Below, piece by piece: positions 2,550-29,369 of a DNA stretch of 50,306 nt. The stretch lies in the NCBI GenBank assembly GCA_041389865.1, contig JAWKRA010000004.1, forward strand, positions 1 through 50,306, written 5' to 3'. The notes under the pieces are model-generated. The model was not told where the DNA came from. It saw nothing but the letters and a program-made list of their open reading frames with translations, and searched no databases. The DNA comes from Nannocystaceae bacterium (GTDB taxonomy: Bacteria > Myxococcota_A > Polyangia > Nannocystales > Nannocystaceae). How positions within the stretch are numbered: position 1 is the stretch's first letter; every line of letters begins with the position of its first letter. Both the position numbers and the translations under genes were made by a program.

Positions 2550-2921
2550 TCAGTCGGCGTAGACCGCCTCCTCCTTCTCCTGGGCCTCCTTGCACTGAAT
2601 GCACAGCGGGGCCTCGGGCCGGGCCGCGAGCCGCTTCTGCGAGATCGGCTCGTCGCACTCCTCGCAGATGCCGAAGGTGCCCTCGTCGATCTTGCGCAGC
2701 GCGAGCTCGATCTTGTCCATCAGGAAGCGCTCGCGGCCGCGGAGCCGAAACGAGAACGCCTGCATGTACTCGCTCGAGGCCTGGTCGACCTCGTCGAAGC
2801 GGTCGTCTGGGGACAGGATCATCTCGGACTCGAGGGTCTTCTGGGCCGCGTCAAACAGGATGCGGCGCTTCTCCTCGAGGATCTTGCGGAACTTCTCAAG
2901 CTGAGTCTTGTTCAGGGCCAT
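2550..2921 (-). CDS. dksA: DksA/TraR-family RNA-polymerase-binding C4 zinc-finger protein (124 aa from the internal Met)
   Basis: MALNKTQLEKFRKILEEKRR..., coiled-coil tip DEVDQAS (DxxDxA) and C-terminal CEECDEPI...CIQC zinc finger. The upstream 71 codons of the ORF are Arg/Pro/Ser junk. Confidence 0.75.
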   Translation of the reverse strand: MALNKTQLEKFRKILEEKRRILFDAAQKTLESEMILSPDDRFDEVDQASSEYMQAFSFRLRGRERFLMDKIELALRKIDEGTFGICEECDEPISQKRLAARPEAPLCIQCKEAQEKEEAVYAD

Positions 2922-3009
2922 CGTCGCGAACGCGTCCTTTTTGAACACCCGCTCGGCCTCGCCGAAGTCGCCGTGGACGGGGCTAGGGAAGGTATCGCAG
3001 TCCGCGGGA

Positions 3010-3951
3010 TCAGGTAAACACCCCTTGCACGAAGAACGCGAGCAGCTCATCGGCGACGGCCTCGATGTCGGTGAGCGCCGCGGACGGCCGGGTCGGCCCT
3101 GGGGTCGCCGACGTCGACGATGCAGGGCGATCACGCGCAGGGGCCGCGTCGATCGCAGCGGCCCGTCGCGCCTCGAGCATTCTTCGAAGGATCTCGCGCA
3201 GCGCCCCCAGGGCGCTCACCGCAATGATGTGACGATCGCAGCGCCGCGCGATCCCGAGCGCGTGCCCGACCTCGACGGCGCGCTCGATCAGCGCGACCAC
3301 CTGATCGAGGAACAGCTCAACTTGCGCGCGCGTCTCCGGGTCAAACGACGCCGGGTCGCGCAGCATGATGTCGGCGAGATCGGAGTCCTCGACGACCACC
3401 GCCATCACTCGGCGGAAGTTCGCGCGCATCTGCTCGAGCGGCTCGCCGTCAGCGGGGTCGAGCGAGATCCTGCGGACGCTGCCGCGGATCCGCTCGAGGA
3501 ACGACTCGCACAGCTCGGCCAGCAGCTCGCGGCGGTTTTGGAAGTAGAGGTAGAAGGTCCCGCGAGCGATCGCGGCGGCGTCGATGATGTCGCGGGTCGA
3601 GGCCGCGTGATAGCCCTTCTCGCGAAACACCCGCTTGGCCGCGCGGAGGATCGCGTCGCGCCGCTGTCGCCTCCGCCGCTGGGCTCGCGACGCGCGGCCG
3701 TCGGTGACCTCGTCGTCGTCATCGCCCGCGATCTCTTCGAACGACGACGATCGTTCGCGCTCGTCCTCGTCACCGATCGTTGCCACAGCACCGGATTCGC
3801 CCGGCTCGCTGCGCGCCTCCGGGCGACGCGCCGCGTCGCGCTCGTCGGAGTCGCCCGCTCGCTCCGAATCGCGCGCCTCTCCTTGCCCTGCACAGGTCGT
3901 CTCCGAGCGCGCATCTGCGAGCTGTGACGAGTCGTGTCGGTTGACAGGCAA
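3010..3951 (-). CDS. TetR/AcrR-family transcriptional regulator with a long, very acidic N-terminal extension
   Basis: HTH region RRDAILRAAKRVFREKGYHAASTRDIIDAAAIARGTFYLYFQNRREL. The first ~95 aa (DEDERERSSSFEEIAGDDDDEVTD) are low-complexity acidic. The start is uncertain and may be an internal non-ATG codon. Confidence 0.65.
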   Translation of the reverse strand: MPVNRHDSSQLADARSETTCAGQGEARDSERAGDSDERDAARRPEARSEPGESGAVATIGDEDERERSSSFEEIAGDDDDEVTDGRASRAQRRRRQRRDAILRAAKRVFREKGYHAASTRDIIDAAAIARGTFYLYFQNRRELLAELCESFLERIRGSVRRISLDPADGEPLEQMRANFRRVMAVVVEDSDLADIMLRDPASFDPETRAQVELFLDQVVALIERAVEVGHALGIARRCDRHIIAVSALGALREILRRMLEARRAAAIDAAPARDRPASSTSATPGPTRPSAALTDIEAVADELLAFFVQGVFT

Positions 3952-7599: not shown

Positions 7600-8775
7600 T
7601 CACGCCGCGCTGGGCCTGACGCGCTCGCGCTCCGCCCGCGCGGATCGGAGGCGCGCGCGGAAGCGGCGGAGCTCCGCGGCGTACTCCGAGCGCGAACGCC
7701 TCGCCAACGCTCGTATCCGGCGTGGACGCAGCACGACGACCCGCGCGGGCGTGGTCGCAGCGCAGGTGCTGCCGTGGCGGCCGCGGGTCTCGAGCAGCGC
7801 GGTCTCGCCGGCGCAGCAGCCCGCGCCCCCCTCCCCGAGCAGGCCCCCCTCGCGGGTGAACTGCACGCGGCCGTCGACGACGACATACAGATCCTTGGCG
7901 ACGAAGCCCTCGTGGAGCAGCTTGTCGCCCGCGTCGAGCTCGAGGAGGACCCCCTCGCGCGCGAGCTGGCGGAGCGCGGGTCTCGACATGCCCTGCACGA
8001 CGGAGCCGGGCACGAGCGCCAGCCGCTCGATCGCCGCGCGCACCTTCGACGGGTCGCGCACGACCTTGCGATCCGCGGCCATGTGGGCGCGAATCGTGGC
8101 GATCCACGGACCCCCCTGGGGGACGCCCGCGCGCCGCATCGCGCGGACGATCGGGCTGCCGCGGCGCTCGATCTCCGCGAGGTCCCCCGCCAGTCCGAGG
8201 ATTGACACCTCGAGCCCGCGGGTACCTCCCACCAATCGGCCGCCGTGCGCGTCGAAGCCGAGCATGTGATAGCGACGCAGCAGCCCGGGCGCCGAGATTG
8301 CGAACCACACGTCGACGGGGCGCTCGCGCATGGCGGCGACGAGCGCGTTGACGAGCATCGCTCCCGCCGCGTTAGTGCCGCGCAGGCGGGGCTCAATCAT
8401 CACCATCTTGATGTCGCCGACCGTCAGACGATCGACCTCGGGGAGCAGGTCAAGGGAGTGAAAGCGTACGACCTCGGCGGGCGCCTCGCCCGGCCCCCAC
8501 ACGCGGAGGCGCACCGTCCCGAGCGGTCGTCCGGGATCGCCGAGGTAGTAGATCCGCGTGGCCGGATCTTCGTCGATCTCGCTGCAGACGCGCCGGCGCT
8601 TCATGTCGACCTCGGGGTGATCGAGGTTGGACTGCTCCTGCGCGTAGACCCGGTAGCGCAGGCGATAGATCGCCTCGCGCTCGCGGGCGGTCGTGGCGAG
8701 GCGCGCCCGATAGCGGCGGCAGATCAGCTCGTCAAACAGGAGGCCCCTGAGCTTGGTACGTACGATCGATAGCAC
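7600..8775 (-). CDS. two-domain protein: N-terminal GNAT-like N-acyltransferase (N-acyl amino acid synthase/FeeM-like) fused to a C-terminal cyclic-nucleotide-binding (cNMP) domain
   Basis: The N-terminus (AIYRLRYRVYAQEQ...YYLGDPGRPLGTVRL...MLGF) matches the autoinducer/N-acyl amino acid synthase GNAT pattern. The C-terminus (LLELDAGDKLLHEGFVAKDLYVVVDGRVQF...GEGGAGCCAGETALLETRGRHGSTCAAT) matches a Crp-type cNMP-binding fold. Confidence 0.6.
   Translation of the reverse strand: MLSIVRTKLRGLLFDELICRRYRARLATTAREREAIYRLRYRVYAQEQSNLDHPEVDMKRRRVCSEIDEDPATRIYYLGDPGRPLGTVRLRVWGPGEAPAEVVRFHSLDLLPEVDRLTVGDIKMVMIEPRLRGTNAAGAMLVNALVAAMRERPVDVWFAISAPGLLRRYHMLGFDAHGGRLVGGTRGLEVSILGLAGDLAEIERRGSPIVRAMRRAGVPQGGPWIATIRAHMAADRKVVRDPSKVRAAIERLALVPGSVVQGMSRPALRQLAREGVLLELDAGDKLLHEGFVAKDLYVVVDGRVQFTREGGLLGEGGAGCCAGETALLETRGRHGSTCAATTPARVVVLRPRRIRALARRSRSEYAAELRRFRARLRSARAERERVRPSAA

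Positions 8776-12815: not shown

Positions 12816-12819
<4 letters not shown>
12238..12819 (-). CDS. two-TM K+-channel-like protein (Ion_trans_2) with selectivity filter TVGYGD
   Basis: ITITTVGYGDFTPVT between two hydrophobic helices. Its start codon overlaps the cusA stop (ATGA), so it is translationally coupled to the RND pump. Confidence 0.6.
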
Positions 12820-16676
<3,857 letters not shown>

Positions 16677-16682
16677 GTACGA

Positions 16683-18737
16683 TCAATGATGGTGGCCCGC
16701 GGCCGCGGCCGGAGGGGGCGGCGCGGAGTCGCCGACGCGAACGGTGAGCCGCTCACGCGGCAGCACCGTCCCCCGGAACTCGCCGCAGCGCAGCATCGCG
16801 GCGCCGTAGTAGGGGTTTCGCAGCACCTCGTCGCGCTGGACCCATCGCGCGCCTCGGGAGTCGAACGCCATCGGGCAGTAGGCGACGCGCAGCGGGTCCT
16901 CGATCGGGTTCCCGAATTCCTCGAGCAGCCGCTCGAGCTGAACGCTGACGTGTTCGAACGCGCTGCGGACCTCGGCGATCGTCTCGGCCTGCGCGGCGTG
17001 TCTGGCGTGGCCGCCAAGCTCCGACGCGGTCTTCTGCCACGCCTCTCGCACCGTGCGCGCGCCCGGCGGATCGAGCTCGTTGACCACGGCCGCGAGGCCC
17101 TCGAGGGAGCTTCGGGCGTCCGTGAGATCATCGGCCGCGAGCCGCTCCTGTCCCTCGAGATAGGCGAGAACCGCCGGCGCGATGGTCTCGAGGAACGCGG
17201 GCGTGACCGCCAAGGCGGGCCGCTCGTCGTCCGCTCGGTCGTCGCCGAGCGTCATCATGCTGCGTCCGCCGGAGAGCTGCAGATCGGCGTCGAGCAGGAA
17301 GGTCCCCCGGGTGACCACCCGCTCGCCCTCGTTCAACCCCGCGAGCACAGGGTAAACGGGGCCCGCCTTAGGCCCCAGTCGAACCTCGCGCAGCTCGTAG
17401 GTCGGGCGCTCGGCGTCGGGGACCTCGACGTAGACGACCGAGCGTCGCCCCGTGAACATCGGCGCGGTGCTGGCGACGACGAGCTGACTCTTGGATTTTT
17501 CGGCGCCCGCGTGGATCACCGCGGACGCGAACATCCCTGGTCGAAGCTGGCCGTCGCGGTTCTTGACCTCGACGCGGACCCGGGCCGTACGACTGCGCTT
17601 GTCGACGACGGGATCAATGAACCCGACCTTGCCGACAAAGACCTGTCCGGGGACAGCCTCGACGGTCAGCTCGACCTCCTGGCCGACGTGCAGGTGCGCG
17701 AGGTCGGACTCGTAGGCGTCGATTTGCACCCAGACCTCGGAGAGGTCGGCGACGCTGTACAGGGGCGCGCCAGGGGTCACGTACTGACCCTCCTCGACGT
17801 GTCGCTCGAGCACGGTGCCGCCGAACGGGGCGTGGATGTCGACGTGCTTGGGCGCCTCGCCGGTGCGCTCGATGCTCTCGATCACCTTGTCGGAGACGCC
17901 CAGGAGGCGCAGTCGCGTGCGCGTGGCCTCGAGCGTCGACGCGCCCAGGCCGGCGGCGCCGTGCAGCCCCTTGCTGAGCTTCTTGGCCTGCGACGCCGCG
18001 AGCACGAGCTCCCGCGTCGCCGTGTAGATCTCGGGGCTGTACAGCTTGGCGACGACGCGGTTCTTGGCGATCCGCGTGCCGGTCGTGCGCACCAGCAGGC
18101 GGTCGATGCGGCCGCCCGTCCACGGCGTGATGGTGCGCAGCCGCGACTCATCATGATCGACGCGGCCGAGCAGCCTGATCTCGGCGCGCGGCTCGGTGCG
18201 CGTGACCGGCTCGGTCTCGACCTGCGCGAGCGCGCGGGCGCGAGGAGAGAGCGACACCTGCCCGCGGTGCTCCACGTGGTCCGAACCATCTGAGGCCTTC
18301 ATCGTCGCTGGTATCAGCTCCATCCCGCAGATCGGGCACGAGCCCGGCTCGTTCATGCGGATCTGCGGGTGCATGGAGCAGGTCCAAACCTGCTGCGCTG
18401 CGGGCTCGGTGACGTGGTCGGCGTGCTCGCCAGCCGCGGGCGCAAGAGGCTCCGCTCCGAAGCGCGATCCGAGGAACAGGCCTACGGCCAGCGCCGTGAG
18501 CAGGCTAACCGAGCTCCCCGCGATCCGCAGCCCGAGCGCCGCCGGCCCGCGGCGCGCTGGCGCGTCTCTGTACACGCGCTCCAGCAATCGGTCGCGCCAA
18601 CGATGAGACCCGCGCGCACCTGTAGCGGCGCGCGGCTCATCGAGCGTCGACGTGTCCGTCTCACGCGGCATGGCGTGATCCACCTCGTGCTCATCGGCTG
18701 GGTTAGGCGCTTCGGGACCCGTGTTCGTGTCGTTCAT
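16683..18737 (-). CDS. cusB: CusB-like RND periplasmic adaptor (membrane fusion protein) with N-terminal heavy-metal-binding domain and C-terminal DUF3347
   Basis: WTCSMHPQIRMNEPGSCPICGMEL (HMBD), biotinyl/lipoyl-like plus beta-barrel MFP core, C-terminal AYCPMAFDSRGARWVQ (DUF3347 signature). Six-bp gap to cusA. Confidence 0.8.
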   Translation of the reverse strand: MNDTNTGPEAPNPADEHEVDHAMPRETDTSTLDEPRAATGARGSHRWRDRLLERVYRDAPARRGPAALGLRIAGSSVSLLTALAVGLFLGSRFGAEPLAPAAGEHADHVTEPAAQQVWTCSMHPQIRMNEPGSCPICGMELIPATMKASDGSDHVEHRGQVSLSPRARALAQVETEPVTRTEPRAEIRLLGRVDHDESRLRTITPWTGGRIDRLLVRTTGTRIAKNRVVAKLYSPEIYTATRELVLAASQAKKLSKGLHGAAGLGASTLEATRTRLRLLGVSDKVIESIERTGEAPKHVDIHAPFGGTVLERHVEEGQYVTPGAPLYSVADLSEVWVQIDAYESDLAHLHVGQEVELTVEAVPGQVFVGKVGFIDPVVDKRSRTARVRVEVKNRDGQLRPGMFASAVIHAGAEKSKSQLVVASTAPMFTGRRSVVYVEVPDAERPTYELREVRLGPKAGPVYPVLAGLNEGERVVTRGTFLLDADLQLSGGRSMMTLGDDRADDERPALAVTPAFLETIAPAVLAYLEGQERLAADDLTDARSSLEGLAAVVNELDPPGARTVREAWQKTASELGGHARHAAQAETIAEVRSAFEHVSVQLERLLEEFGNPIEDPLRVAYCPMAFDSRGARWVQRDEVLRNPYYGAAMLRCGEFRGTVLPRERLTVRVGDSAPPPPAAAAGHHH

Positions 18738-20161
18738 CGCAACTCCTTGGATGCCCGGACCGGGCGGCCGACGACCTGCTCGAGCTCAGCCCAGGCGATC
18801 GCCGCGTCGACGCGGGCGCGCAGCGCCATCAGCCGCAGGTCAAGCAGCTCGCGCTCCGCCATCAACACCTCGACCACGCTCGCGCGGCCGCTCTGGTAGC
18901 TGGCCTGGACGGCCTCGTAGGACGTCTCGGCCAGCGGGATCATCGTTGTGTCGTAGAGCGCGACCCGGCGGTCCGCGTCGCGCAACCTCGCCATCACGCG
19001 TTCGAAGTCCTCGACGGCGTGGTTGCGAGCGGCGAGCTCACGCGCGCGAAACATCCGCGAGCGGGCTCGCGCCTCATCCTCGCCGGCGCTGTAGGAGCCG
19101 AACGAGAGCGGCACCTTGATGGCCGCCATGCCCATGACCGCGTCCTTGCCAGAGTCGGGCATCGTGGGATCAGCGGCCGGTCCGGTGATGATCCAATCGA
19201 CGCCCAGGCCAAAGCTCGGGAACCGATCGGCTCGTGACTGCCGGACGCGCTGGTCGCTCGACTCGGACATCAGCGCCAGCGCCCGCACGCGTGGGTGCGA
19301 GGTGGCGGCGAGCCGCAGCGAATCGTCGTCCTCGCCCGGGACTCCGATCCGCGGCGTCGCGGTGTCGATCGGGGTCGCAGCGCCATCGGGCGCGCCCACC
19401 ACCCGCACGAGCGCGGCCGCGGCGGTCCGCGCGTCCTCGTCGAGCGCGGCGAGGTGGTCCTCGGCGCGGGTGACCCGGAGGTTGATCTGCGTGAGGTCAG
19501 AGAGAGCGGCCGCGCTGGCCTCGACGCGGACGCGCACGAACTCGGCGACGGTCTGCAAGAGCGAGAGCTGCTCGGCCTCGACCTCGCGCGTGCGCTTGAT
19601 CAGCCACAGGCGCCAGTACACCGCCGACACCTCGGCCGCGATCCGGAGCGCGTGGGCTTCGAATTCGCGCTGGGCAGCCCGCGCGGCCAGGGCCTCCGCC
19701 TCACTCGCGGCGGTGAGCTTCGTCGGCCATGGGAACCACTGCTGGAGCCCGAGCTTGTGGCGCTGCGGGCCGACGCGCGTCTCGACGCTGCGGATGAACC
19801 CCGCGTACGAGATCATCACCTCGGGGAGCCGACGAACCATGCGCGGCCGATAGGTCGCGGCCCGCCACGCTTCGAAGCTAGCCCGCAGCTCCGGACTGTG
19901 CTCGAACGCGTACTGCTGGTAGCGCAGCAGCGTCCCGTCGAACGACGCGGTCGACGGCGTCGGCTGCTGCGCTGCGCCATCGTCGACGGGGCGAGCAGGC
20001 AGCGGGGCGAGCTGACGCTCGACACGCGCCGCGTCGCGTCGCGTCGCGCGTTCGACGGTGCCGGCGCACGCAGGGCCAGCGCTCGCGAGCGCGGCGGCCA
20101 GCAGGGGCCAGGGAAAGACCGTCCGCCCCGCTCGAGCGGACGTCGGTTGTTTGGATGACAT
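18734..20161 (-). CDS. cusC: TolC/CusC-family outer-membrane efflux protein
   Basis: Start taken at the internal Met (MSSKQPTSARAG) with a signal peptide. Two TolC-like repeats. The 4-bp overlap with the cusB start indicates a cusCBA operon. Confidence 0.75.
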   Translation of the reverse strand: MSSKQPTSARAGRTVFPWPLLAAALASAGPACAGTVERATRRDAARVERQLAPLPARPVDDGAAQQPTPSTASFDGTLLRYQQYAFEHSPELRASFEAWRAATYRPRMVRRLPEVMISYAGFIRSVETRVGPQRHKLGLQQWFPWPTKLTAASEAEALAARAAQREFEAHALRIAAEVSAVYWRLWLIKRTREVEAEQLSLLQTVAEFVRVRVEASAAALSDLTQINLRVTRAEDHLAALDEDARTAAAALVRVVGAPDGAATPIDTATPRIGVPGEDDDSLRLAATSHPRVRALALMSESSDQRVRQSRADRFPSFGLGVDWIITGPAADPTMPDSGKDAVMGMAAIKVPLSFGSYSAGEDEARARSRMFRARELAARNHAVEDFERVMARLRDADRRVALYDTTMIPLAETSYEAVQASYQSGRASVVEVLMAERELLDLRLMALRARVDAAIAWAELEQVVGRPVRASKELR

Positions 20162-20249
20162 GGAAGAACCTGTTCCTCGCGCTGTGATGCTCTCAAGACC
20201 CCACGCCGCCCGCGTACACGAGGGCGGCGACAGCTCAAGCGCGGCTGGT

Positions 20250-20654
20250 TCACAGCAAGTAGGAGCAGTTCTGCTTGTAGAGGCCCACGCGGTCTGGTGG
20301 ACCTCGTGCCCGAGCGCGCGCGAACGAGGCGCGCGCGACCGGACGGGCCAATGGCGCTGTGTGTCGGACGTGAGACACCCGCGCGACCGACGGGGACGGC
20401 TCTGGATCGTCGAGCACAGCCGACGGCGCGCCCGCGCGGGACATGTCCGAAGAGCAACACGGCTCACGCTGGACGGAGGCCGCCTCGCGCCCCTCCGGGT
20501 CGCGGTGCTTGCAGCAGCAGCACGACTCCACCGCTGTGGTCGGGCACGCGCGCGTCGGCGTGCCTGGCAGCGTGAGGGCGATCGCCATCAGCACGCCGAG
20601 CAGACGAGCCCACCACGGCGTCGTGCCTCTCGCTCGGCTCGCGGCGTCGCTCAC
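20250..20654 (-). CDS. candidate small secreted Cys-rich protein (CCCC motif) directly upstream of cusC
   Basis: N-terminus MSDAASRARGTTPWWARLLGVLMAIALTLPGT looks like a signal peptide, followed by ACPTTAVESCCCCKHRDPEG...PCCSSD. High GC3 in the first ~80 codons. The C-terminal third is low-complexity, so its extent is uncertain. Confidence 0.3.
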   Translation of the reverse strand: MSDAASRARGTTPWWARLLGVLMAIALTLPGTPTRACPTTAVESCCCCKHRDPEGREAASVQREPCCSSDMSRAGAPSAVLDDPEPSPSVARVSHVRHTAPLARPVARASFARARARGPPDRVGLYKQNCSYLL

Positions 20655-20763
20655 CCTGACACCGTACCTAACTTTGGCGTGCTCGAATGAAGTGAGGCCG
20701 CGTGAAGTGAATCACGTACCGCGATGAGGTGTAATGATCAGGGACTTCGCTCGTTGAGAGCGT

Positions 20764-21234
20764 GTGGAGGACACCGTTCAAGCAGCACGAGACGTAGCAC
20801 AACGCCAGCGAAGGGCCCTCTGGCTCTCGATCGCGCTGTCGATGCTCGGCGAGCTGACCATCCTGCTCGTCTGGGGCATTTTCCTCTACCCCGCGGGCGA
20901 TCTTGCGACGAAGTTCCTGTGGACCGTCGTTGTTTGCGGACTCGGCATGGGCTCGACCATAGGAGCGCTGCTCGTGCTGCTCGTGGTCGGGCGGCTCTGG
21001 GGCGCCGCCGCGATCGCAGCGTCGACCGTGCTGTCGACCCTCGTGCTCGGCGTCGGCTGCAACCTGCTCTGCTTTCAGCTCGACACGCACTTCTTCCACT
21101 CCTTCGGCGGCGCCGAGAACTCCGGGCTCTTCCTCTGGAACGGCGTGTTCATGGCGGCGGTCGGCGGGGCGATCACCGGATGGTTGGTGTTCACGGACTC
21201 CGGAGCGCGCATCCTGACGCGGTTCGGAGTATGA
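20764..21234 (+). CDS. hypothetical integral membrane protein (4 TM)
   Basis: Hydrophobic helices LWLSIALSMLGELTILLVWGIFLY, FLWTVVVCGLGMGSTIGALLVLLVV, etc. Confidence 0.5.
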   Translation: MEDTVQAARDVAQRQRRALWLSIALSMLGELTILLVWGIFLYPAGDLATKFLWTVVVCGLGMGSTIGALLVLLVVGRLWGAAAIAASTVLSTLVLGVGCNLLCFQLDTHFFHSFGGAENSGLFLWNGVFMAAVGGAITGWLVFTDSGARILTRFGV

Positions 21235-21343: not shown

Positions 21344-21997
21344 ATGAACCCGATGCGATTCCTCAAGCCAGCCCTGACCCCCTCCGCGCGACGCGGGCTC
21401 GCGACGCGGTTCAATCGGTCCGAGATCGCCGACATCCTCGACGACACGTTCGCCGCGTATGACGAGCAGCGCCCGCAGCTCATCCGCGAGCCGTCCGCGG
21501 GCGGTCGCCTCATGGTGCACCTCGCGGCGCTGACGGTCGGCCTCTACCGCGCGATCACGGCTCGGGGAGTCTGTGAGGACGAGGCTCGCGCCCTGACGGC
21601 CGCCGTGACCTGGAGGATCTACGAGAAGATGGCGTCGATCCCCTCGGCGCTCGCGCGGGTCAGCGCGCACACAGCCTTCGACTTCCTCAAGCGCGCGACG
21701 GACCTCTTCCGTCGCTTCCCGTTCAGCGCGCCGTCCTACGTCATGGAGGACGTGGCGAGCAATGACGACGTGGTCGCGTTTGATGTTCGCCGCTGCCCCG
21801 TCGCCGAGCACTTTCGGTCGCAGGGGCTCGGCGAGCTGTGTGTCGCGTCGTGGTGTAACCTCGACGTTCCGCTCGCCCAGCGGTGGGGCGCGCAGCTCGA
21901 ACGCAGCCGCACCATCGCCGGCGGCGCGAGCCACTGCGACTTTCGCTGGCGCGTCATCGCAGCCGATCAGCAAAGCGCCGCCGGAGATCGCTCATGA
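21344..21997 (+). CDS. L-2-amino-thiazoline-4-carboxylic acid hydrolase-like (ATC_hydrolase family) protein
   Basis: C-terminal conserved pattern RCPVAEHFRSQGLGELCVASWCNLDVPLAQRWGAQLERSRTIAGGASHCDFRW. Confidence 0.55.
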   Translation: MNPMRFLKPALTPSARRGLATRFNRSEIADILDDTFAAYDEQRPQLIREPSAGGRLMVHLAALTVGLYRAITARGVCEDEARALTAAVTWRIYEKMASIPSALARVSAHTAFDFLKRATDLFRRFPFSAPSYVMEDVASNDDVVAFDVRRCPVAEHFRSQGLGELCVASWCNLDVPLAQRWGAQLERSRTIAGGASHCDFRWRVIAADQQSAAGDRS

Positions 21998-22076
21998 GCG
22001 CGCGAGGCCTGGTCGACGCGCCGCGGGCGATGACACGTCGGGCGGCGGTCGCTGCCGCTACGACGAGGGGGAGCGC

Positions 22077-22757
22077 ATGAGCGGGATCCAGACCGGCTCC
22101 AAGACGTGTGGGTGTGGTCGCGGCGCCCACGAGACGCGCCTCGTCGCCGTCACCGGGGGACCGGGCGCGGGGAAGACCGCCATCCTCGAGATGGCGCTTC
22201 GTTCGTTCTGCGCCCACGTGGGAGTCCTCCCCGAGGCAGCGAGCGTTGTGTTCGGCGGCGGGTTCCCGCGACACAGCACCGACATCGCTCGCCGCGCCGC
22301 GCAACGAGCCATCTACCACGTCCAGCGGGAGATCGAGGCGGTCGTCGTCGGTGAGCGTCAGGTCGCCGTTGGTCTCTGCGATCGCGGGACCGTCGACGGC
22401 GTCGCCTACTGGCCTGGCTCGGCCGCTTCGTACTGGGAGGAGCTCGGGACCACCGCGGAGGCCGAGCTCCGACGCTACGCAGCGGTCATCCACCTCGAGA
22501 CGCCCGCCGCAGATCAGGGCTACAACCATCAGAACGCCCTGCGGGTCGAGTCGCCGACCGAGGCTCGCGCGCTCGATCGACGGATCCTCGCCGCCTGGGC
22601 GGGTCACCCCAACCACGCGGTCGTATCGAGCGCCGACGACTTCGTCCAAAAGGCCGCGCGCGCGCTCGAGCTCGTGCGCGCCCAGCTCTCGCCGTGCTGC
22701 CACGGGCACGCGCTCCCCCACGAATCACGACCGGAGCGCGAGCGCGATGGAGCGTGA
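22077..22757 (+). CDS. P-loop ATPase (AAA_28/NadR-like predicted ATPase)
   Basis: Walker A VTGGPGAGKTAIL, Walker B-like AVIHLET. GGGGGAG RBS upstream. Start at internal ATG 22077. Confidence 0.55.
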   Translation: MSGIQTGSKTCGCGRGAHETRLVAVTGGPGAGKTAILEMALRSFCAHVGVLPEAASVVFGGGFPRHSTDIARRAAQRAIYHVQREIEAVVVGERQVAVGLCDRGTVDGVAYWPGSAASYWEELGTTAEAELRRYAAVIHLETPAADQGYNHQNALRVESPTEARALDRRILAAWAGHPNHAVVSSADDFVQKAARALELVRAQLSPCCHGHALPHESRPERERDGA

Positions 22758-23647: not shown

Positions 23648-25664
<2,017 letters not shown>

Positions 25665-25668
<4 letters not shown>

Positions 25669-25934
25669 AACCCGAGATGCGGCGACGAGTGTCTCGTCGG
25701 GCGCAGAGAATGGACGCGGAGCGTAAGCGTGCGGGTGGATTCTGGCGTGGCCTCGGCTTTGTGGGTGCGATCGGCTGGATGCTCATCTTGCCGATGGCGG
25801 CCGGCGGATTCGCAGGACACACCGCCGACATGCACGTGGGGAGCGGCGTGACGTTCGCGCTGGCTGGACTCTTGCTCGGTTTGTGCATCGGCGCCTACAC
25901 TGTGTGGCGATTTGTAGTTCGGAGCGTGCTATGA
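25665..25934 (+). CDS. N-ATPase accessory membrane protein (AtpQ/AtpI-like)
   Basis: Basic N-terminus then two TM helices (GLGFVGAIGWMLILPMAAGGFAG, VTFALAGLLLGLCIGAYTVW). Confidence 0.5.
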
Positions 25935-26203
25935 TGATCCTCCAGTGGATTGGAGCATGCGCCTGGGGCGTCGCAGTCGCCTGCCTCTTCATGCTCGCGT
26001 TGCGAAGAGAGATCGACAGAATGCTGGCTCGAGAACGCGACGGTCCACGGCACCGACGACTACGCCGCTCATTGCGTTGGGTCTGCGTCTCATCCGCGCT
26101 CGCGCTACCCGCGCTCGCGGGAGCCGTCGGGCTCGGGACGTTGATCGCGTTCGTCGTGACCCGAAGCGCGTGGCTCCGACGGGAGGTGGTCCGTGGATCT
26201 TGA
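25931..26203 (+). CDS. N-ATPase accessory membrane protein (AtpR-like, Arg-containing)
   Basis: MMILQWIGACAWGVAVACLFMLALRR... and a second TM helix. ATGA overlap with the previous gene. Confidence 0.45.
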   Translation: MMILQWIGACAWGVAVACLFMLALRREIDRMLARERDGPRHRRLRRSLRWVCVSSALALPALAGAVGLGTLIAFVVTRSAWLRREVVRGS

Positions 26204-26891
26204 CGCCATCTTTCCGTATTCGGTCTTTCGCCTGTGGGGGGTCGAGGTTCACGACAGCGTCGTTGTGACGTGGGGCTTGATGGCGGTGTTGGCCCTGCTG
26301 AGCTGGATAACGACTCGTCGACTCGCTCAACAGCCTGGCGCGCTTCAGAACGCGATGGAGGCGATCGTCGAGGCCATTGAGTCGCTGGTCTCGGAGGTCA
26401 CGCCCTACGATCCGCGGTATTTTATACCGTTTATCGGGACGCTCGCCATCTATCTCGTCGCGGCGAACACCGTATCAGTGGCGCCGGGCATTGGTTCGCC
26501 GACGAGGGACCTGAACACGCCGCTCGCGCTCGCGCTCGTCGTGTTTCTGTCGGTTCACATTTACGGATGGCTCCTGATCGGACCACGCCGGTACCTCCGG
26601 GCCTACGTGCAGCCGTCGTGGCTGCTCCTGCCATTCAACGTCATCAGTGAGGTGACCCGCACCATCGCGTTGGCGCTGCGCCTGTTCGGCAACATGCTCT
26701 CCGGTGAGCTTGTCGTGGCCATCCTGCTGCTGTTTGGCGCGCTTCTCATACCTGTTCCGATGCAGCTCTTCGGGCTGCTCATCGGCGCGATCCAGGCCTA
26801 CGTCTTCACGCTGTTGGCGATGGTCTACATCTCAGCCGCGCTCGGCTCCCCGGAACAAGCCCTGTCCGAGAATAGGAGAAACACGAAATGA
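26193..26891 (+). CDS. atpB: F-type ATPase subunit a
   Basis: Conserved a-subunit helix with the essential Arg (LALRLFGNMLSGELV). Confidence 0.75.
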   Translation: MDLDAIFPYSVFRLWGVEVHDSVVVTWGLMAVLALLSWITTRRLAQQPGALQNAMEAIVEAIESLVSEVTPYDPRYFIPFIGTLAIYLVAANTVSVAPGIGSPTRDLNTPLALALVVFLSVHIYGWLLIGPRRYLRAYVQPSWLLLPFNVISEVTRTIALALRLFGNMLSGELVVAILLLFGALLIPVPMQLFGLLIGAIQAYVFTLLAMVYISAALGSPEQALSENRRNTK

Positions 26892-27151
26892 ACGCTCTCA
26901 GCGTCGTTGTTGCAATCAGCGTCTTTACCGCGGGTATCACCATAGCGATTGGTGGCTACGGCCCGTCACGTGGGGAAGGAGAGGCGCTGGCGCGGGCGTT
27001 GGACGCCATCGCGCGCCAACCTGACGAGGCCGATCGCATCAGCCGAACGCTATTCGTCGGAATGGCGATGGTCGAGTCCACGGCGATCTACGCGCTGGTC
27101 ATATCGCTGATCCTGCTGTTCGCCAATCCCTTGCTCGAGCTCGTCCGGTGA
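26888..27151 (+). CDS. atpE: F-type ATPase subunit c (Na+-binding-type helix 2)
   Basis: Loop ARQPD, helix 2 VESTAIYALVISLILLFANP with the ESTxxY Na+-ligand set, as in Ilyobacter c-subunits. Confidence 0.75.
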   Translation: MNALSVVVAISVFTAGITIAIGGYGPSRGEGEALARALDAIARQPDEADRISRTLFVGMAMVESTAIYALVISLILLFANPLLELVR

Positions 27152-27867
27152 ACGTCTACCTGCCGACGGTCTTGTTTCAGAGCATCAATTTCTTGGTGCT
27201 CGTGGTCATCCTGTGGAGGCTGCTGTTTCGACCTCTTCGCGTTCACATGCAAGGGCGCGCCCAGAGGATCGCGGACGGCCTGGTCGCGGTCGAGACGGGA
27301 CAGCGAGAGATCGCTACGATGCGGGAAGAGGTGCAAATGGAGCTCGAGCGGGCAGGTGCGTCTAGGGAGGAGACGCTGCGAGCCGCGCGGGCGCAGGGCG
27401 AAGCGGAGCGCCACCTGCTGCTTGAGAACGCACGCGCGGCTGCACGGGCGGAGCGAGATCGCCTGCTGTCGACAGTCGCAGATAAACAGACCCAGCGCGA
27501 GGCGGAGTTCCTTCGATCGCTTACGCCGCAGCTCCAGACGTTGGTGGCGAGAATCATCGATGAGCTCGCTGACGCTGCGAGCTTTCACCGCGTCAGCTGT
27601 GAGCGCTTCGCGGTGTTCCTGTCCGAGCTGCCCCCAGCCCTGTGCGCCGAGCTCGCAGCCGAGACGAGCGAATCGATCGAGCTCGTCGTTGCCCGCGAGC
27701 CGATCCCCGAGGTGCTGCGCCTGGCGGTGGCGCGGCTCTCTATGGTGCCAACGGTGACACGGGTCGACCCCGACCTGCTGGCCGGCGCCAAGTTGATCGC
27801 CGGTGAAATGGTGCTTGACGGCAGCGTACGCGGTCAGATAGCGCGTACGATTGGAGATGTATCTTGA
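27148..27867 (+). CDS. atpF: F-type ATPase subunit b (C-terminal region delta-like)
   Basis: N-terminal TM helix, long Ala/Arg/Glu-rich coiled coil. The C-terminus (LLAGAKLIAGEMVLDGSVRGQIARTIG) resembles a delta/OSCP C-terminus. Confidence 0.65.
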   Translation: MNVYLPTVLFQSINFLVLVVILWRLLFRPLRVHMQGRAQRIADGLVAVETGQREIATMREEVQMELERAGASREETLRAARAQGEAERHLLLENARAAARAERDRLLSTVADKQTQREAEFLRSLTPQLQTLVARIIDELADAASFHRVSCERFAVFLSELPPALCAELAAETSESIELVVAREPIPEVLRLAVARLSMVPTVTRVDPDLLAGAKLIAGEMVLDGSVRGQIARTIGDVS

Positions 27868-29369
27868 GCTCCGAGCCGACCGGGGGGCGTCTTCCGACGT
27901 TCGCGGCTCGACTCGACGTCGCCGCCCGCGGCTTTCGCTTCGCACCCGAGATCCGCAGGCAAGGCCGCGTGCTCGCAGTCGGCGACGGGGTGGCCCTCGT
28001 CAGTGGGATGCCTGATGTCGCGTTGTCGGAGATCGTGCTGGTCGCCGGCTGGCTCCCAGGCGTAGTGCTGGATCTTCGCGAGTCGACGGTCGGCGTCGCC
28101 CTGCTCGAGTCGCCTACGACTTCACTGGTCGGCGCGCCGGTCACTGGGAGCGGTGAGGTGATCTCCTGCTTCGTCGGCGACGAGCTCCTCGGACGAATGG
28201 TCGACGGACTCGGACGCCCTCTGGACGGCGGCAAGCCCTGGTCGAGCGCCGAGCGCTGGCCCGTCGAGCGAGCGGCGCCAGCATTGGTGGAGCGCGCGGC
28301 TGTGCGAGAGCCGCTGCTCACCGGCGTTATGGTCGTCGACGCGTTATTCCCGATCGGGCGAGGGCAACGTGAGCTCATCGTGGGCGATCGCGGGACCGGA
28401 AAGTCAACCCTTGCGATTGACGCTGTGATCAATCAGCGCGACACGGGCGTACGGTGCGTGATCGTCTCGATCGGGCAGCAGTCGTCGTCGGTCGTCCAGC
28501 TGATCGAGCGGCTGGCGAAGCACGACGCGCTCGGGCACACGGTGGTCGTAGTAGCTCCGGCCGCGAGCGCGCCTGGTCTACGATTCATCGCACCGTACGC
28601 TGGATGCACGATCGGGGAGTTCTTCCGCGATCGCGGTGAGGACGCGCTCGTCGTTTTCGATGACCTGACTCAGCACGCGATCGCGTACCGCGAACTGTCG
28701 CTGCTCCTGCAGCGTCCGCCTGGACGAGAGGCGTACCCCGGAGACATCTTCTTCATCCACTCGCGCCTCCTCGAACGAGCTACGCGACTCAGCGACGCGC
28801 GCGGCGGAGGATCATTGACGATGTTGCCGATCGCGGAGACCCACGCAGGCCGCATCAGCGACTTTATCCCTACGAACTTGATCTCTATTACCGACGGTCA
28901 GCTCTACCTCGAGCCGACGCTCTTCGATCGCGGGATCAAACCGGCCGTTGATGTGGGCCTCAGCGTGTCGCGGGTGGGCGGGCGAACACAGCGCCCAAGT
29001 ATGAAAGCCGTCGCTGGTAGGCTGCGGCTCGACGCGGCGCGGTTTCGGGAGGTCGAGGTATTCAGTCGATTCGGGGGCCGCGTCGAAGCTTCGACACAGA
29101 AGCTCTTGACGCGCGGAGAACGCGCGCGAGAGCTGCTCAGACAAGGCCCGGGCGATGCGAGGTCACCGGCCGAACAGGTCGCATTGCTCGTCGCGCTCCA
29201 AGAGGGCAGGTTCGATGAAGTCGAGGTTCCGGACGTGCCTGCGGTCGTCGCTCGCTTGCGTGCTCGCCTGCGATCGTGTGATCCGGTTCTCCTGACAAAC
29301 CTCGATCATGGGCCTCCACCGACCGCGTCAGAGCGATCAGCGATTGTCGCGCTCTTCGAGGACACGTGA
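27864..29369 (+). CDS. atpA: F-type ATPase alpha subunit
   Basis: Walker A GDRGTGKST, downstream conserved regions, characteristic alpha C-terminal domain. Confidence 0.85.
   Translation: MSSEPTGGRLPTFAARLDVAARGFRFAPEIRRQGRVLAVGDGVALVSGMPDVALSEIVLVAGWLPGVVLDLRESTVGVALLESPTTSLVGAPVTGSGEVISCFVGDELLGRMVDGLGRPLDGGKPWSSAERWPVERAAPALVERAAVREPLLTGVMVVDALFPIGRGQRELIVGDRGTGKSTLAIDAVINQRDTGVRCVIVSIGQQSSSVVQLIERLAKHDALGHTVVVVAPAASAPGLRFIAPYAGCTIGEFFRDRGEDALVVFDDLTQHAIAYRELSLLLQRPPGREAYPGDIFFIHSRLLERATRLSDARGGGSLTMLPIAETHAGRISDFIPTNLISITDGQLYLEPTLFDRGIKPAVDVGLSVSRVGGRTQRPSMKAVAGRLRLDAARFREVEVFSRFGGRVEASTQKLLTRGERARELLRQGPGDARSPAEQVALLVALQEGRFDEVEVPDVPAVVARLRARLRSCDPVLLTNLDHGPPPTASERSAIVALFEDT

Follow-up and report, generated by a model that had tools for sequence, protein, structure and literature searches.

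We analysed a stretch of 50,306 nucleotides from a Nannocystaceae bacterium (assembly GCA_041389865.1, contig JAWKRA010000004.1), hereafter called the window, and focus on a small open reading frame (ORF) on its minus strand, which lies at the head of a cusCBA-type operon. The product of this small ORF is probably a cis-acting leader peptide of the CruR/CutF/SilD kind, i.e. an arrest peptide that senses metal and gates cusCBA. Its set of features, namely an export signal, a Cys cluster, a ruler-like spacing, an RGPP motif, the position as first cistron, a structured leader RNA and no predicted fold, suits a folded chaperone far less well than an arrest peptide. Our verdict is that the family to which it belongs is large and probably forms a new Myxococcota branch, hitherto uncatalogued, within the recently recognised class of metal-sensing leader peptides, set apart by its Cys motif and by the geometry of its arrest site.

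The mechanism that we favour would run as follows. The N-terminal signal would target the nascent chain for export and the ribosome would arrest at R117-G-P-P120. At this point the Cys cluster (C37, C45-48, C66-67), 52-82 residues up the chain, would be outside the tunnel, at or beyond the translocon, where it could bind Cu(I)/Ag(I); the bound metal would alter the folding of the chain or the pulling force on it and, by this, the duration of the arrest. Zn-dependent folding of ADR1a reportedly releases the SecM arrest, which would be a precedent for a metal-dependent folding force. The output would be read by the mRNA, in which cusC's Shine-Dalgarno (SD) sequence is predicted to base-pair with codons 130-132, close to the small ORF's end. 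As long as the ribosome is held at RGPP, 54 nt (54-60 nt) ahead of the stop, this helix would stay intact and the tail and leader RNA naked (pump OFF), and a released ribosome reaching the UGA codon would unwind the helix and shield the naked tail and leader RNA from Rho (pump ON). The OFF state is assigned to the arrested ribosome because the arrest site precedes the stop while the SD partner sits at the stop. The most likely sign of the response is that metal relieves the arrest and allows translation of cusCBA, since metal has to switch an efflux pump on. We infer arrest by the peptide, its modulation by metal, the response sign and the SD-unmasking output from computational analysis.

That two-component or MerR-type regulators control Cus, Czc and Sil efflux pumps at the level of transcription is textbook knowledge. 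If our reading is true, cusCBA is gated in a whole clade of Myxococcota (Polyangia) by an exported peptide which, while still nascent, informs its own ribosome about the availability of metal. The CruR/CutF principle, which is recent and for which two examples have been studied experimentally, would then extend to RND (resistance-nodulation-division) efflux and to another phylum, with a different metal motif (CCC/CC) joined to the strongest known arrest motif, RGPP. The fixed 50-residue ruler would offer a natural system for ligand-dependent folding force acting through translocon and tunnel, and SilD and CusD, genes long named and still uncharacterised, would gain a testable function.

Coding status, conservation and family of the small gene

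The first-pass annotation had seen here a possible unannotated small secreted protein, or else a non-coding artefact. The pieces of sequence that it quoted from the minus-strand ORF, WWARLLGVLMAIALTLPGTPTRA, CPTTAVESCCCCKHRDPEG and PCC, are present exactly as given. The window has a GC content of 68%, and 44 ORFs of at least 40 aa overlap 5 kb here; the length of the ORF is by itself no evidence, because such GC-rich DNA abounds in chance ORFs, and it is conservation which lifts this one above chance. A plus-strand ORF of 94 aa (20443-20727) was discarded as an antisense artefact: it has its third codon positions in common with the small ORF, of whose high GC content at these positions (GC3) it shows a mirror image. 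The high GC3 reported for the first ~80 codons of the small ORF was found over codons 1-75 (0.80-0.95), with lower values after (0.70-0.80), and GC3 of this frame tops that of the other two minus-strand frames except at ~20360-20420.

A genome scan with CusC brought up two orthologous loci, one from a Myxococcales and one from a Polyangia metagenome-assembled genome (MAG; loci L001 and L002), which encode a 79% identical CusC. In each of them the small ORF recurs at the corresponding position and in frame, with the same start and the same C-terminus and stop, and free of internal indels. The small proteins are only 47-51% identical among the orthologues, yet all 8 Cys, RGPP and the last residues (Y126, K127, Q128, C130, S131, L133 and L134) are invariant in the three. 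Conservation of the ORF and of its Cys positions at orthologous loci, the test suggested by the first-pass annotation, thus gave a positive answer (8/8 Cys, in frame, in both). A profile of the three orthologues led to eight database proteins, and a profile of these, run against 1.84 billion cluster representatives (50% identity), retrieved 1,075 of them at E<=1e-3, 233 of which were at E<=1e-10. Nearly all are 120-140 aa long and aligned end to end. Where a member has a source name, this is in every case a MAG of Polyangiaceae, Polyangia or Myxococcales, and the entry is labelled 'hypothetical protein'. Synonymous codons vary freely at the conserved residues, including those of RxPP, and therefore selection acts on the peptide.

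Other searches were less productive. With the window protein alone, neither a single-sequence word-index search nor an exact-protein look-up gave a match; tblastn of the family consensus against plasmids gave none, and a back-translated DNA pattern scan of metagenomes returned two loci only. The epithet 'unannotated' is correct in that the exact window protein is absent from the records, but the L001 orthologue has been annotated by NCBI as a hypothetical protein; the small gene is called only inconsistently by annotation pipelines. No match above a curated Pfam or NCBIfam cut-off was obtained with the window protein, 9 members, 102 members or the family consensus, and thus a family of more than 1,000 sequence clusters has no member at the cut-off of either database.

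Could the ORF nevertheless be a chance product of GC-rich DNA? The abundance of spurious ORFs and the failure of the single-sequence search would be in line with this, as would the codon-position substitution counts between orthologues (48/41/54), which are not concentrated at third positions, but these counts are uninformative because the linker is saturated. Set against the common frame, start and stop, the invariant Cys, the more than 1,000 relatives of the same length, the synonymous variation and the fixed gene order, a non-coding artefact has a negligible probability, and we regard the small ORF as almost certainly a real protein-coding gene. The expectation of a small secreted protein agrees with a conserved Cys cluster and an export signal predicted from sequence features.

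Protein architecture, leader RNA and surroundings

The coordinates of the features are collected in Table 1. The N-terminus is a putative signal peptide or N-in signal anchor. AlphaFold2 predicts a helix at residues 14-28 of the window protein (pLDDT, the per-residue confidence, ~91), and heuristic scans of 188 members located a strongly hydrophobic 12-mer ~11 residues before the first Cys in 186, K or R ahead of it in 175 and a small-x-small pattern after it in 180. Throughout the family, the pattern [YF]-x-C-x-M occurs ~11 residues after the hydrophobic helix. In an alignment of 102 sequences C47, C48, C66 and C67 are invariant, and C37 and C46 are at least 90% conserved; C-x9-CCC is found in 135 of 174 members, with CC[ED] 16-20 residues further on. 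The linker that follows has no conserved columns in the same alignment, but the distance from CC to the Arg of the arrest motif is 50±1 residues in 145 of 174 members (49 in the window protein).

Arrest would be expected with the Pro119 codon in the P site and the Pro120 codon in the A site. P119 is invariant and R117 and P120 are at least 90% conserved (102 sequences); RGPP occurs in 88 of 201 members, RAPP in 80 and RSPP in 4, in the context [AS]-R-[GA]-P-P and, across the family, 15±1 residues before the C-terminus. Next comes the tail, of the pattern xxGPP[LI][FY][IV]x[HN]C[SA][LFY]L[ILST] followed by the stop, with C130 and L133 at least 90% conserved. The first-pass annotation had called the end of the protein low-complexity; this describes residues 68-116, the variable linker, whereas the C-terminal 18 residues are among the most conserved parts. 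The tail of most members contains a second GPP, which lies 11-13 residues ahead of the C-terminus. The clade of the window protein has kept RGPP and lost the second GPP; conversely, ~12% of the members are without RxPP and yet have kept GPP and the tail, and every member has at least one PP in its last 20 residues. A subgroup (P0184-P0199) has QAPL in place of RAPP and retains GPPLFIVHCAFLS, i.e. a natural 'arrest-motif knockout'. With the 102-sequence alignment as input, AlphaFold2 reached a predicted TM-score (pTM) of 0.27 only: the N-terminal helix alone is confident, and there is no globular fold.

Table 1. Features of the small gene, its leader and the operon.
Feature	Coordinates	Strand	Description
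Small ORF	20250..20654	-	134 aa; GTG start at 20654, TGA at 20252-20250; first cistron of the operon
Export signal (predicted)	20547..20654	-	Residues 1-36: Arg-containing n-region, hydrophobic core WWARLLGVLMAIALTLPG, T-R-A before Cys37
Putative metal-binding Cys cluster	20454..20546	-	Residues 37-67: C37-x7-CCCC(45-48)-x17-CC(66-67)
Linker	20307..20453	-	Residues 68-116; conserved in length, variable in sequence; pLDDT 54-68
RGPP	20295..20306	-	Residues 117-120; predicted ribosome-arrest motif
Conserved tail	20250..20294	-	Residues 121-134 and stop: DRVGLYKQNCSYLL, then stop; family consensus xxGPPLFIxHCSLLI, then stop
Predicted anti-SD	20259..20267	-	UGCUCCUAC, codons Cys130-Ser131-Tyr132; predicted to pair with the cusC SD
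GC-rich intergenic hairpin	20204..20229	-	CGCCGCCC-N10-GGGCGGCG; not scored as an intrinsic terminator
Putative cusC SD	20173..20178	-	GAGGAA; predicted paired in free mRNA, probability unpaired 0.05
cusC-like outer membrane factor	18734..20161	-	475 aa; Pfam OEP; ATG start
cusB-like adaptor	16683..18737	-	684 aa; HlyD_D23, N-terminal HMBD, C-terminal DUF3347
cusA-like RND pump	12816..16676	-	1286 aa; ACR_tran; TM4 signature AIGTMVDMGIVFTEN

In each of the 11 loci with DNA, prediction places the SD of the OEP gene in a paired state (probability unpaired 0-0.17). Its partner is a segment at -15..+18 around the stop of the small ORF in 8 of the 11, with a pairing mass of 0.36-1.00 against 0.04-0.08 for dinucleotide shuffles; in the window the SD partners are at -11..-7 from the stop and the pairing mass, from the partition function, is 0.94 against a shuffle mean of 0.07. 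Masking the RNA as a ribosome at the stop would do raised the predicted accessibility of the SD in 8 of the 11 loci. A direct melting of the SD helix by the RGPP-arrested ribosome, i.e. the strict CutF/SecM geometry, was tried and rejected: masking of RxPP changed SD accessibility in 0 loci. Scans of the leader against Rfam and for terminators and promoters yielded nothing relevant, neither an intrinsic terminator nor an Rfam family, and in a scan for C>G bubbles resembling Rho-utilisation sites a C-rich stretch coincided with the Pro/Leu codons of the tail. The stop codon is UGA in 11/11 family ORFs with DNA, which may simply be a matter of stop-codon usage at high GC; SilD ends in UAG (L013 20024-20026).

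That the downstream genes make up a cusC-type operon, as the first-pass annotation had it, was upheld by Pfam (OEP, then HlyD_D23 with HMBD and DUF3347, then ACR_tran), and the small ORF and cusC are on the same strand, although the distance from the small ORF to the cusC ATG at 20161 is 88 nt and not the 89 bp given. The TM4 signature of the pump is, by comparison with signatures of heavy-metal efflux (HME) RND pumps, of the Cus (Cu/Ag) type. The pump is ~240 aa longer than the ACR_tran model, with an extra hydrophobic stretch at residues ~540-700, and its true start is likely the ATG located 7 codons into the TTG-started ORF. In 13 of 13 loci, the window included, the small gene is directly upstream of the OEP gene, and CusB (with HMBD) and CusA come next where the contig extends; the loci are the window, L001, L002, L003/4, L005/6, L007, L010, L011, L012 and the P0010 and P0185 contigs, plus L008 and L009, which were judged by eye. 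The two genes are on the same strand, 78-160 nt apart in loci other than the window. CusB of the HMBD type goes with the small gene at almost every related locus. No cusF gene was found in the window operon with Pfam, and no regulator of the CusRS, two-component or MerR type among the neighbouring window ORFs tested.

Genes further upstream of the small gene vary between loci. In the window, a divergent 156-aa multi-helix membrane protein (20764-21234, +) without a Pfam match is 67% identical to its counterpart in L001 and absent from the other loci, and was rejected as a component of the system. L002 has, divergent from the small ORF, a lipoprotein-like product with an FTCPM motif (2761-3306, -), which resembles HMBD or DUF3347 by eye. 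The P0010 contig contains a second RND system immediately upstream (CzcB-ACR_tran, a thioredoxin-like protein and a cation diffusion facilitator transporter), and L012 an extra OEP gene upstream (716-2101) as well as a PAS-GGDEF-EAL protein. Elsewhere in the window, an ATC_hydrolase-like ORF (21344-21997, +) overlaps an AAA_28 ORF (21762-22757, +) by ~235 nt in a different frame, the start of the second being probably further downstream; an ATP synthase cluster occupies 23672-29369 (+), with alpha/beta-type subunits at 23672-25264 and 27864-29369 and the A chain at 26193-26891; and the product of 7600-8775 (-) combines a FeeM-like N-acyl amino acid synthase domain and a cyclic-nucleotide-binding domain in one protein.

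Nascent sensor or finished protein

What could such a protein do? One possibility, in line with the periplasmic metal-binding chaperone of the first-pass annotation, is that the finished product works in trans, as a secreted or membrane-anchored Cys-rich periplasmic binder of Cu(I)/Ag(I): a chaperone, a buffer, an accessory of the pump or a substitute for CusF. Multi-Cys periplasmic copper proteins such as CopG and Csp1 do exist. The export signal and the 7-8 conserved Cys would suit a binder of this type, as would the operon devoid of cusF, the annotation of SilD as a 'copper/silver resistance protein' and a tail whose Cys130, beyond the arrest motif, is conserved even where RxPP has been lost. 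The product is indeed unlike CusF, as had been supposed: no Pfam match was obtained, PF11604 included, and the conserved residues are Cys, against the Met/His/Trp Cu(I) site of CusF. But no fold is predicted despite an alignment of 102 sequences, the linker keeps its length and not its sequence, the gene is always the first cistron, ahead of a structured leader, and the protein evolves fast when compared with CusC. Moreover, an arrest-prone and avoided motif such as RGPP is unlikely to be kept in more than 80% of the members for structural reasons (PMC12992588), and CutF, a related case, cannot be detected in vivo and is inactive in trans (PMC9973294). The chaperone proposal, which overlooked both R[GA]PP and the variable linker of fixed length between the Cys motif and R[GA]PP, is the weaker reading, and we hold it to be unlikely. 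A trans-acting membrane regulator, either a metal sensor like CzcI or an anti-sigma-like protein signalling to a transcription factor, is highly improbable: a single N-terminal hydrophobic helix followed by a periplasmic Cys region would be compatible with it, and CzcI, encoded upstream of czcCBA, was suggested to be a metal-sensing regulator (PMC9973294), but there is no cytoplasmic domain, no sigma factor or regulator is conserved alongside, with upstream neighbours that differ in every locus, and RxPP and the length ruler would not be accounted for.

Another possibility keeps the nascent chain as the sensor and inverts the effect of the pause. By the logic of CutF and SecM, the ribosome would pause at the second GPP or at the UGA codon, with the tail (…HCSLLI) in the tunnel and the ribosome over the anti-SD, and metal would prolong the pause and turn the pump ON. 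The masking results agree with this, a ribosome at the stop opening the SD in 8/11 loci and one at RxPP having no effect, and so do the conservation of the tail at the peptide level up to its last residue, the sharing of this tail with SilD, the His/Asn-Cys dyad 5 residues from the end (at least 90% conserved), the UGA stop in 11/11 and the precedent of CutF, where a stall prolonged by Cu melts the stem-loop that shields the SD. This proposal is purely inferential, the clade of the window itself lacks the second GPP, and UGA is anyway the commonest stop in high-GC genomes. We know of no arrest peptide that carries a tail of this kind. Besides, RxPP acts at the peptidyl-transferase centre and not inside the tunnel (PMC10951233; PMC12992588). 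In our estimation such a pause is rather improbable.

The metal-relieved arrest at RGPP remains our preferred reading, with several points that weigh against it. The arrest function of the family would rest on what has been published for RGPP/RAPP, CruR and CutF; the resemblance to CruR and CutF is one of architecture, the scores falling below the DUF2946 and HYC_CC_PP thresholds, and in CruR, which has no conserved tail, only 3 residues separate RAPP from the C-terminus, instead of 14-16 for the motif here. The tail, conserved at the peptide level and kept without RxPP in ~12% of the members, is not explained by a pure RxPP arrest and may mean that the finished protein has a function. The sign of the regulation is deduced from geometry, and CutF and CruR have opposite signs. 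The evidence for SD/anti-SD pairing is purely predictive: the stop-proximal pairing is missing in 3/11 loci, the single-sequence leader fold has z = -1.4, not significant alone, and a ranking by duplex only is ambiguous, in that the stop-proximal segment comes out on top for 4/11 loci and takes third place for a further one. At this point we may also speculate about a two-stage switch distinct from CruR and CutF and probably including SilD/CusD: an EF-P (elongation factor P)-resistant RGPP arrest released when metal binds to an exported CCC/CC cluster, followed by a pause of the ribosome on the stop, over the anti-SD, imposed by the tail (…GPPLFIxHCSLLI-UGA), so that the pump would be gated by arrest-controlled translational coupling. 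We put this forward tentatively and hold it to be unlikely. The His-Cys dyad of the tail may be a second metal sensor, inside the tunnel.

Comparison with known systems

Among tetrapeptides, RGPP is the most avoided in bacterial proteomes, owing to translation arrest, and RAPP is also strongly avoided; both resist EF-P, are the most robust of the arrest motifs and show enrichment close to the C-terminus in small secreted proteins whose genes lie upstream of metal-related ones (PMC12992588). Judged by its sequence, the window protein fits the definition of an RGPP arrest peptide, i.e. a small protein (<300 aa) with a localisation signal and a downstream gene in the same direction. It has this in common with ApdA, ApdP and SecM-like peptides (Sakiyama 2021, PMC7897499; Morici 2024, PMC10951233; EMBO J 2025, PMC12992588), which are small secreted proteins with R-[AG]-P-P near the C-terminus and a same-strand gene downstream. 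They differ in that they monitor Sec/YidC activity and have no metal motif, in an arrest motif that is normally closer to the stop, and in having no HC-containing tail.

The NCBIfam model HYC_CC_PP (NF047658; 131 model positions) also recalls the family, its HYC, CC and PP mirroring the Y-x-C, CC and PP of the present proteins. Matches to it, all of them weak, came from just 3 of 102 members (best 15.1 bits against a cut-off of 28, best E 1.6e-4); in P0015, residues 41-91 are collinear with model positions 41-90, again at a weak score, and the window protein and the family consensus give no match. For DUF2946 (PF11162, gathering threshold 23.7 bits) 4 of 102 members match weakly, with a best E of 0.037 and, for P0034, 11.5 bits, which is below the cut-off, and the window protein has no match at E<=5. 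By the curated definitions, the family is outside both.

DUF2946 is the family of CruR (Bp2923 of Bordetella pertussis; Roy et al. 2022, PMC9426467), in which a copper-relieved arrest at RAPP governs the downstream genes (PMC9426467); the arrest was later demonstrated directly, with a toeprint (PMC12992588). Both systems have a small upstream ORF with an exported product heading a metal operon, a long GC-rich leader and a Cys motif at a fixed distance from R-A/G-P-P (45 residues in CruR, ~50 here), and in both, binding of metal to the nascent chain is proposed to relieve the arrest. In DUF2946/CruR the spacing from CXXC to RAPP is 45±2 and a change of 5 residues impaired regulation (PMC9426467). 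The fixed spacing of 50±1 over an unconserved linker parallels this ruler and was therefore counted in favour of arrest. The differences concern the metal motif, CXXC in CruR as opposed to C-x9-CCC and CC without CXXC in this family, and the output: in Bordetella a TonB-dependent importer is repressed by copper through Rho, whereas here the downstream gene products form an efflux pump, expected to be induced.

CutF of Rhodobacter capsulatus is a Sec-exported nascent Cu sensor, whose C-terminal Pro-rich stall melts a stem-loop shielding the next SD (PMC9973294; bioRxiv 10.1101/2025.02.05.636593), and Cu prolongs this stall (bioRxiv 10.1101/2025.02.05.636593). A Cys motif recurs here, Sec export, a C-terminal Pro-rich stall and an mRNA helix shielding the next SD may do so, by prediction, and the action in cis only, established for CutF, is the one that we propose. 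The window protein appears to have most of the operational attributes of CutF-like proteins (PMC9973294): it is shorter than 150 aa, with a same-strand neighbour at 88 nt and a Cys motif. The PP attribute is borderline, P119-P120 being the 16th and 15th residues from the end; in most family members the second GPP provides it. Where CutF has CxxxC and an EF-P-sensitive PPP, the present family has an EF-P-resistant RGPP; the stalled ribosome itself melts the stem-loop in CutF, whereas here the predicted SD partner lies 40-60 nt past the arrest site; and the gene downstream is that of a multicopper oxidase in one case and an OEP gene in the other, although OEP genes are the commonest neighbours downstream of CutF-like genes (PMC9973294).

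SilD (encoded on pMOL30) and CusD of Cupriavidus metallidurans CH34, the first gene products of silDCBA and cusDCBAF, both appear as nodes in the network of CutF-like proteins (Ozturk et al. 2023, PMC9973294). The gene of SilD (L013 20024-20419, -), which has no Pfam or NCBIfam match, is followed after 72 nt by the gene for the OEP protein of a Cu/Ag HME-RND pump. The protein has 131 aa (134 here), a signal peptide that ends just before the first Cys, Cys at 30, 50, 65 and 69 (37, 45-48 and 66-67 here) and a 46-residue linker to R-P-P-P, then the tail RPLAILHCCFRI and the stop; this tail, PLAILHCCFRI, resembles the PPLFIxHCSLLI of the family. Prediction suggests that the silD-silC leader behaves similarly, with the SD partly paired to the segment right after the stop; in addition, the silD tail codons AUC-CUC-CAU contain CCUCC, a perfect anti-SD, opposite the silC SD GGAGG. 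An alignment with hhalign was restricted to the last 12 columns (probability 3%, E 0.013), and the parallels of layout were drawn by eye. SilD has CxxxC-H where the family has CCC...CC, RPPP in place of R[GA]PP and, after the motif, 12 residues as against 14-16, and it comes from Betaproteobacteria and not from Myxococcota; for SilD and CusD, too, the mechanism is only proposed. In position and architecture, SilD/CusD are the nearest analogue of the window gene.

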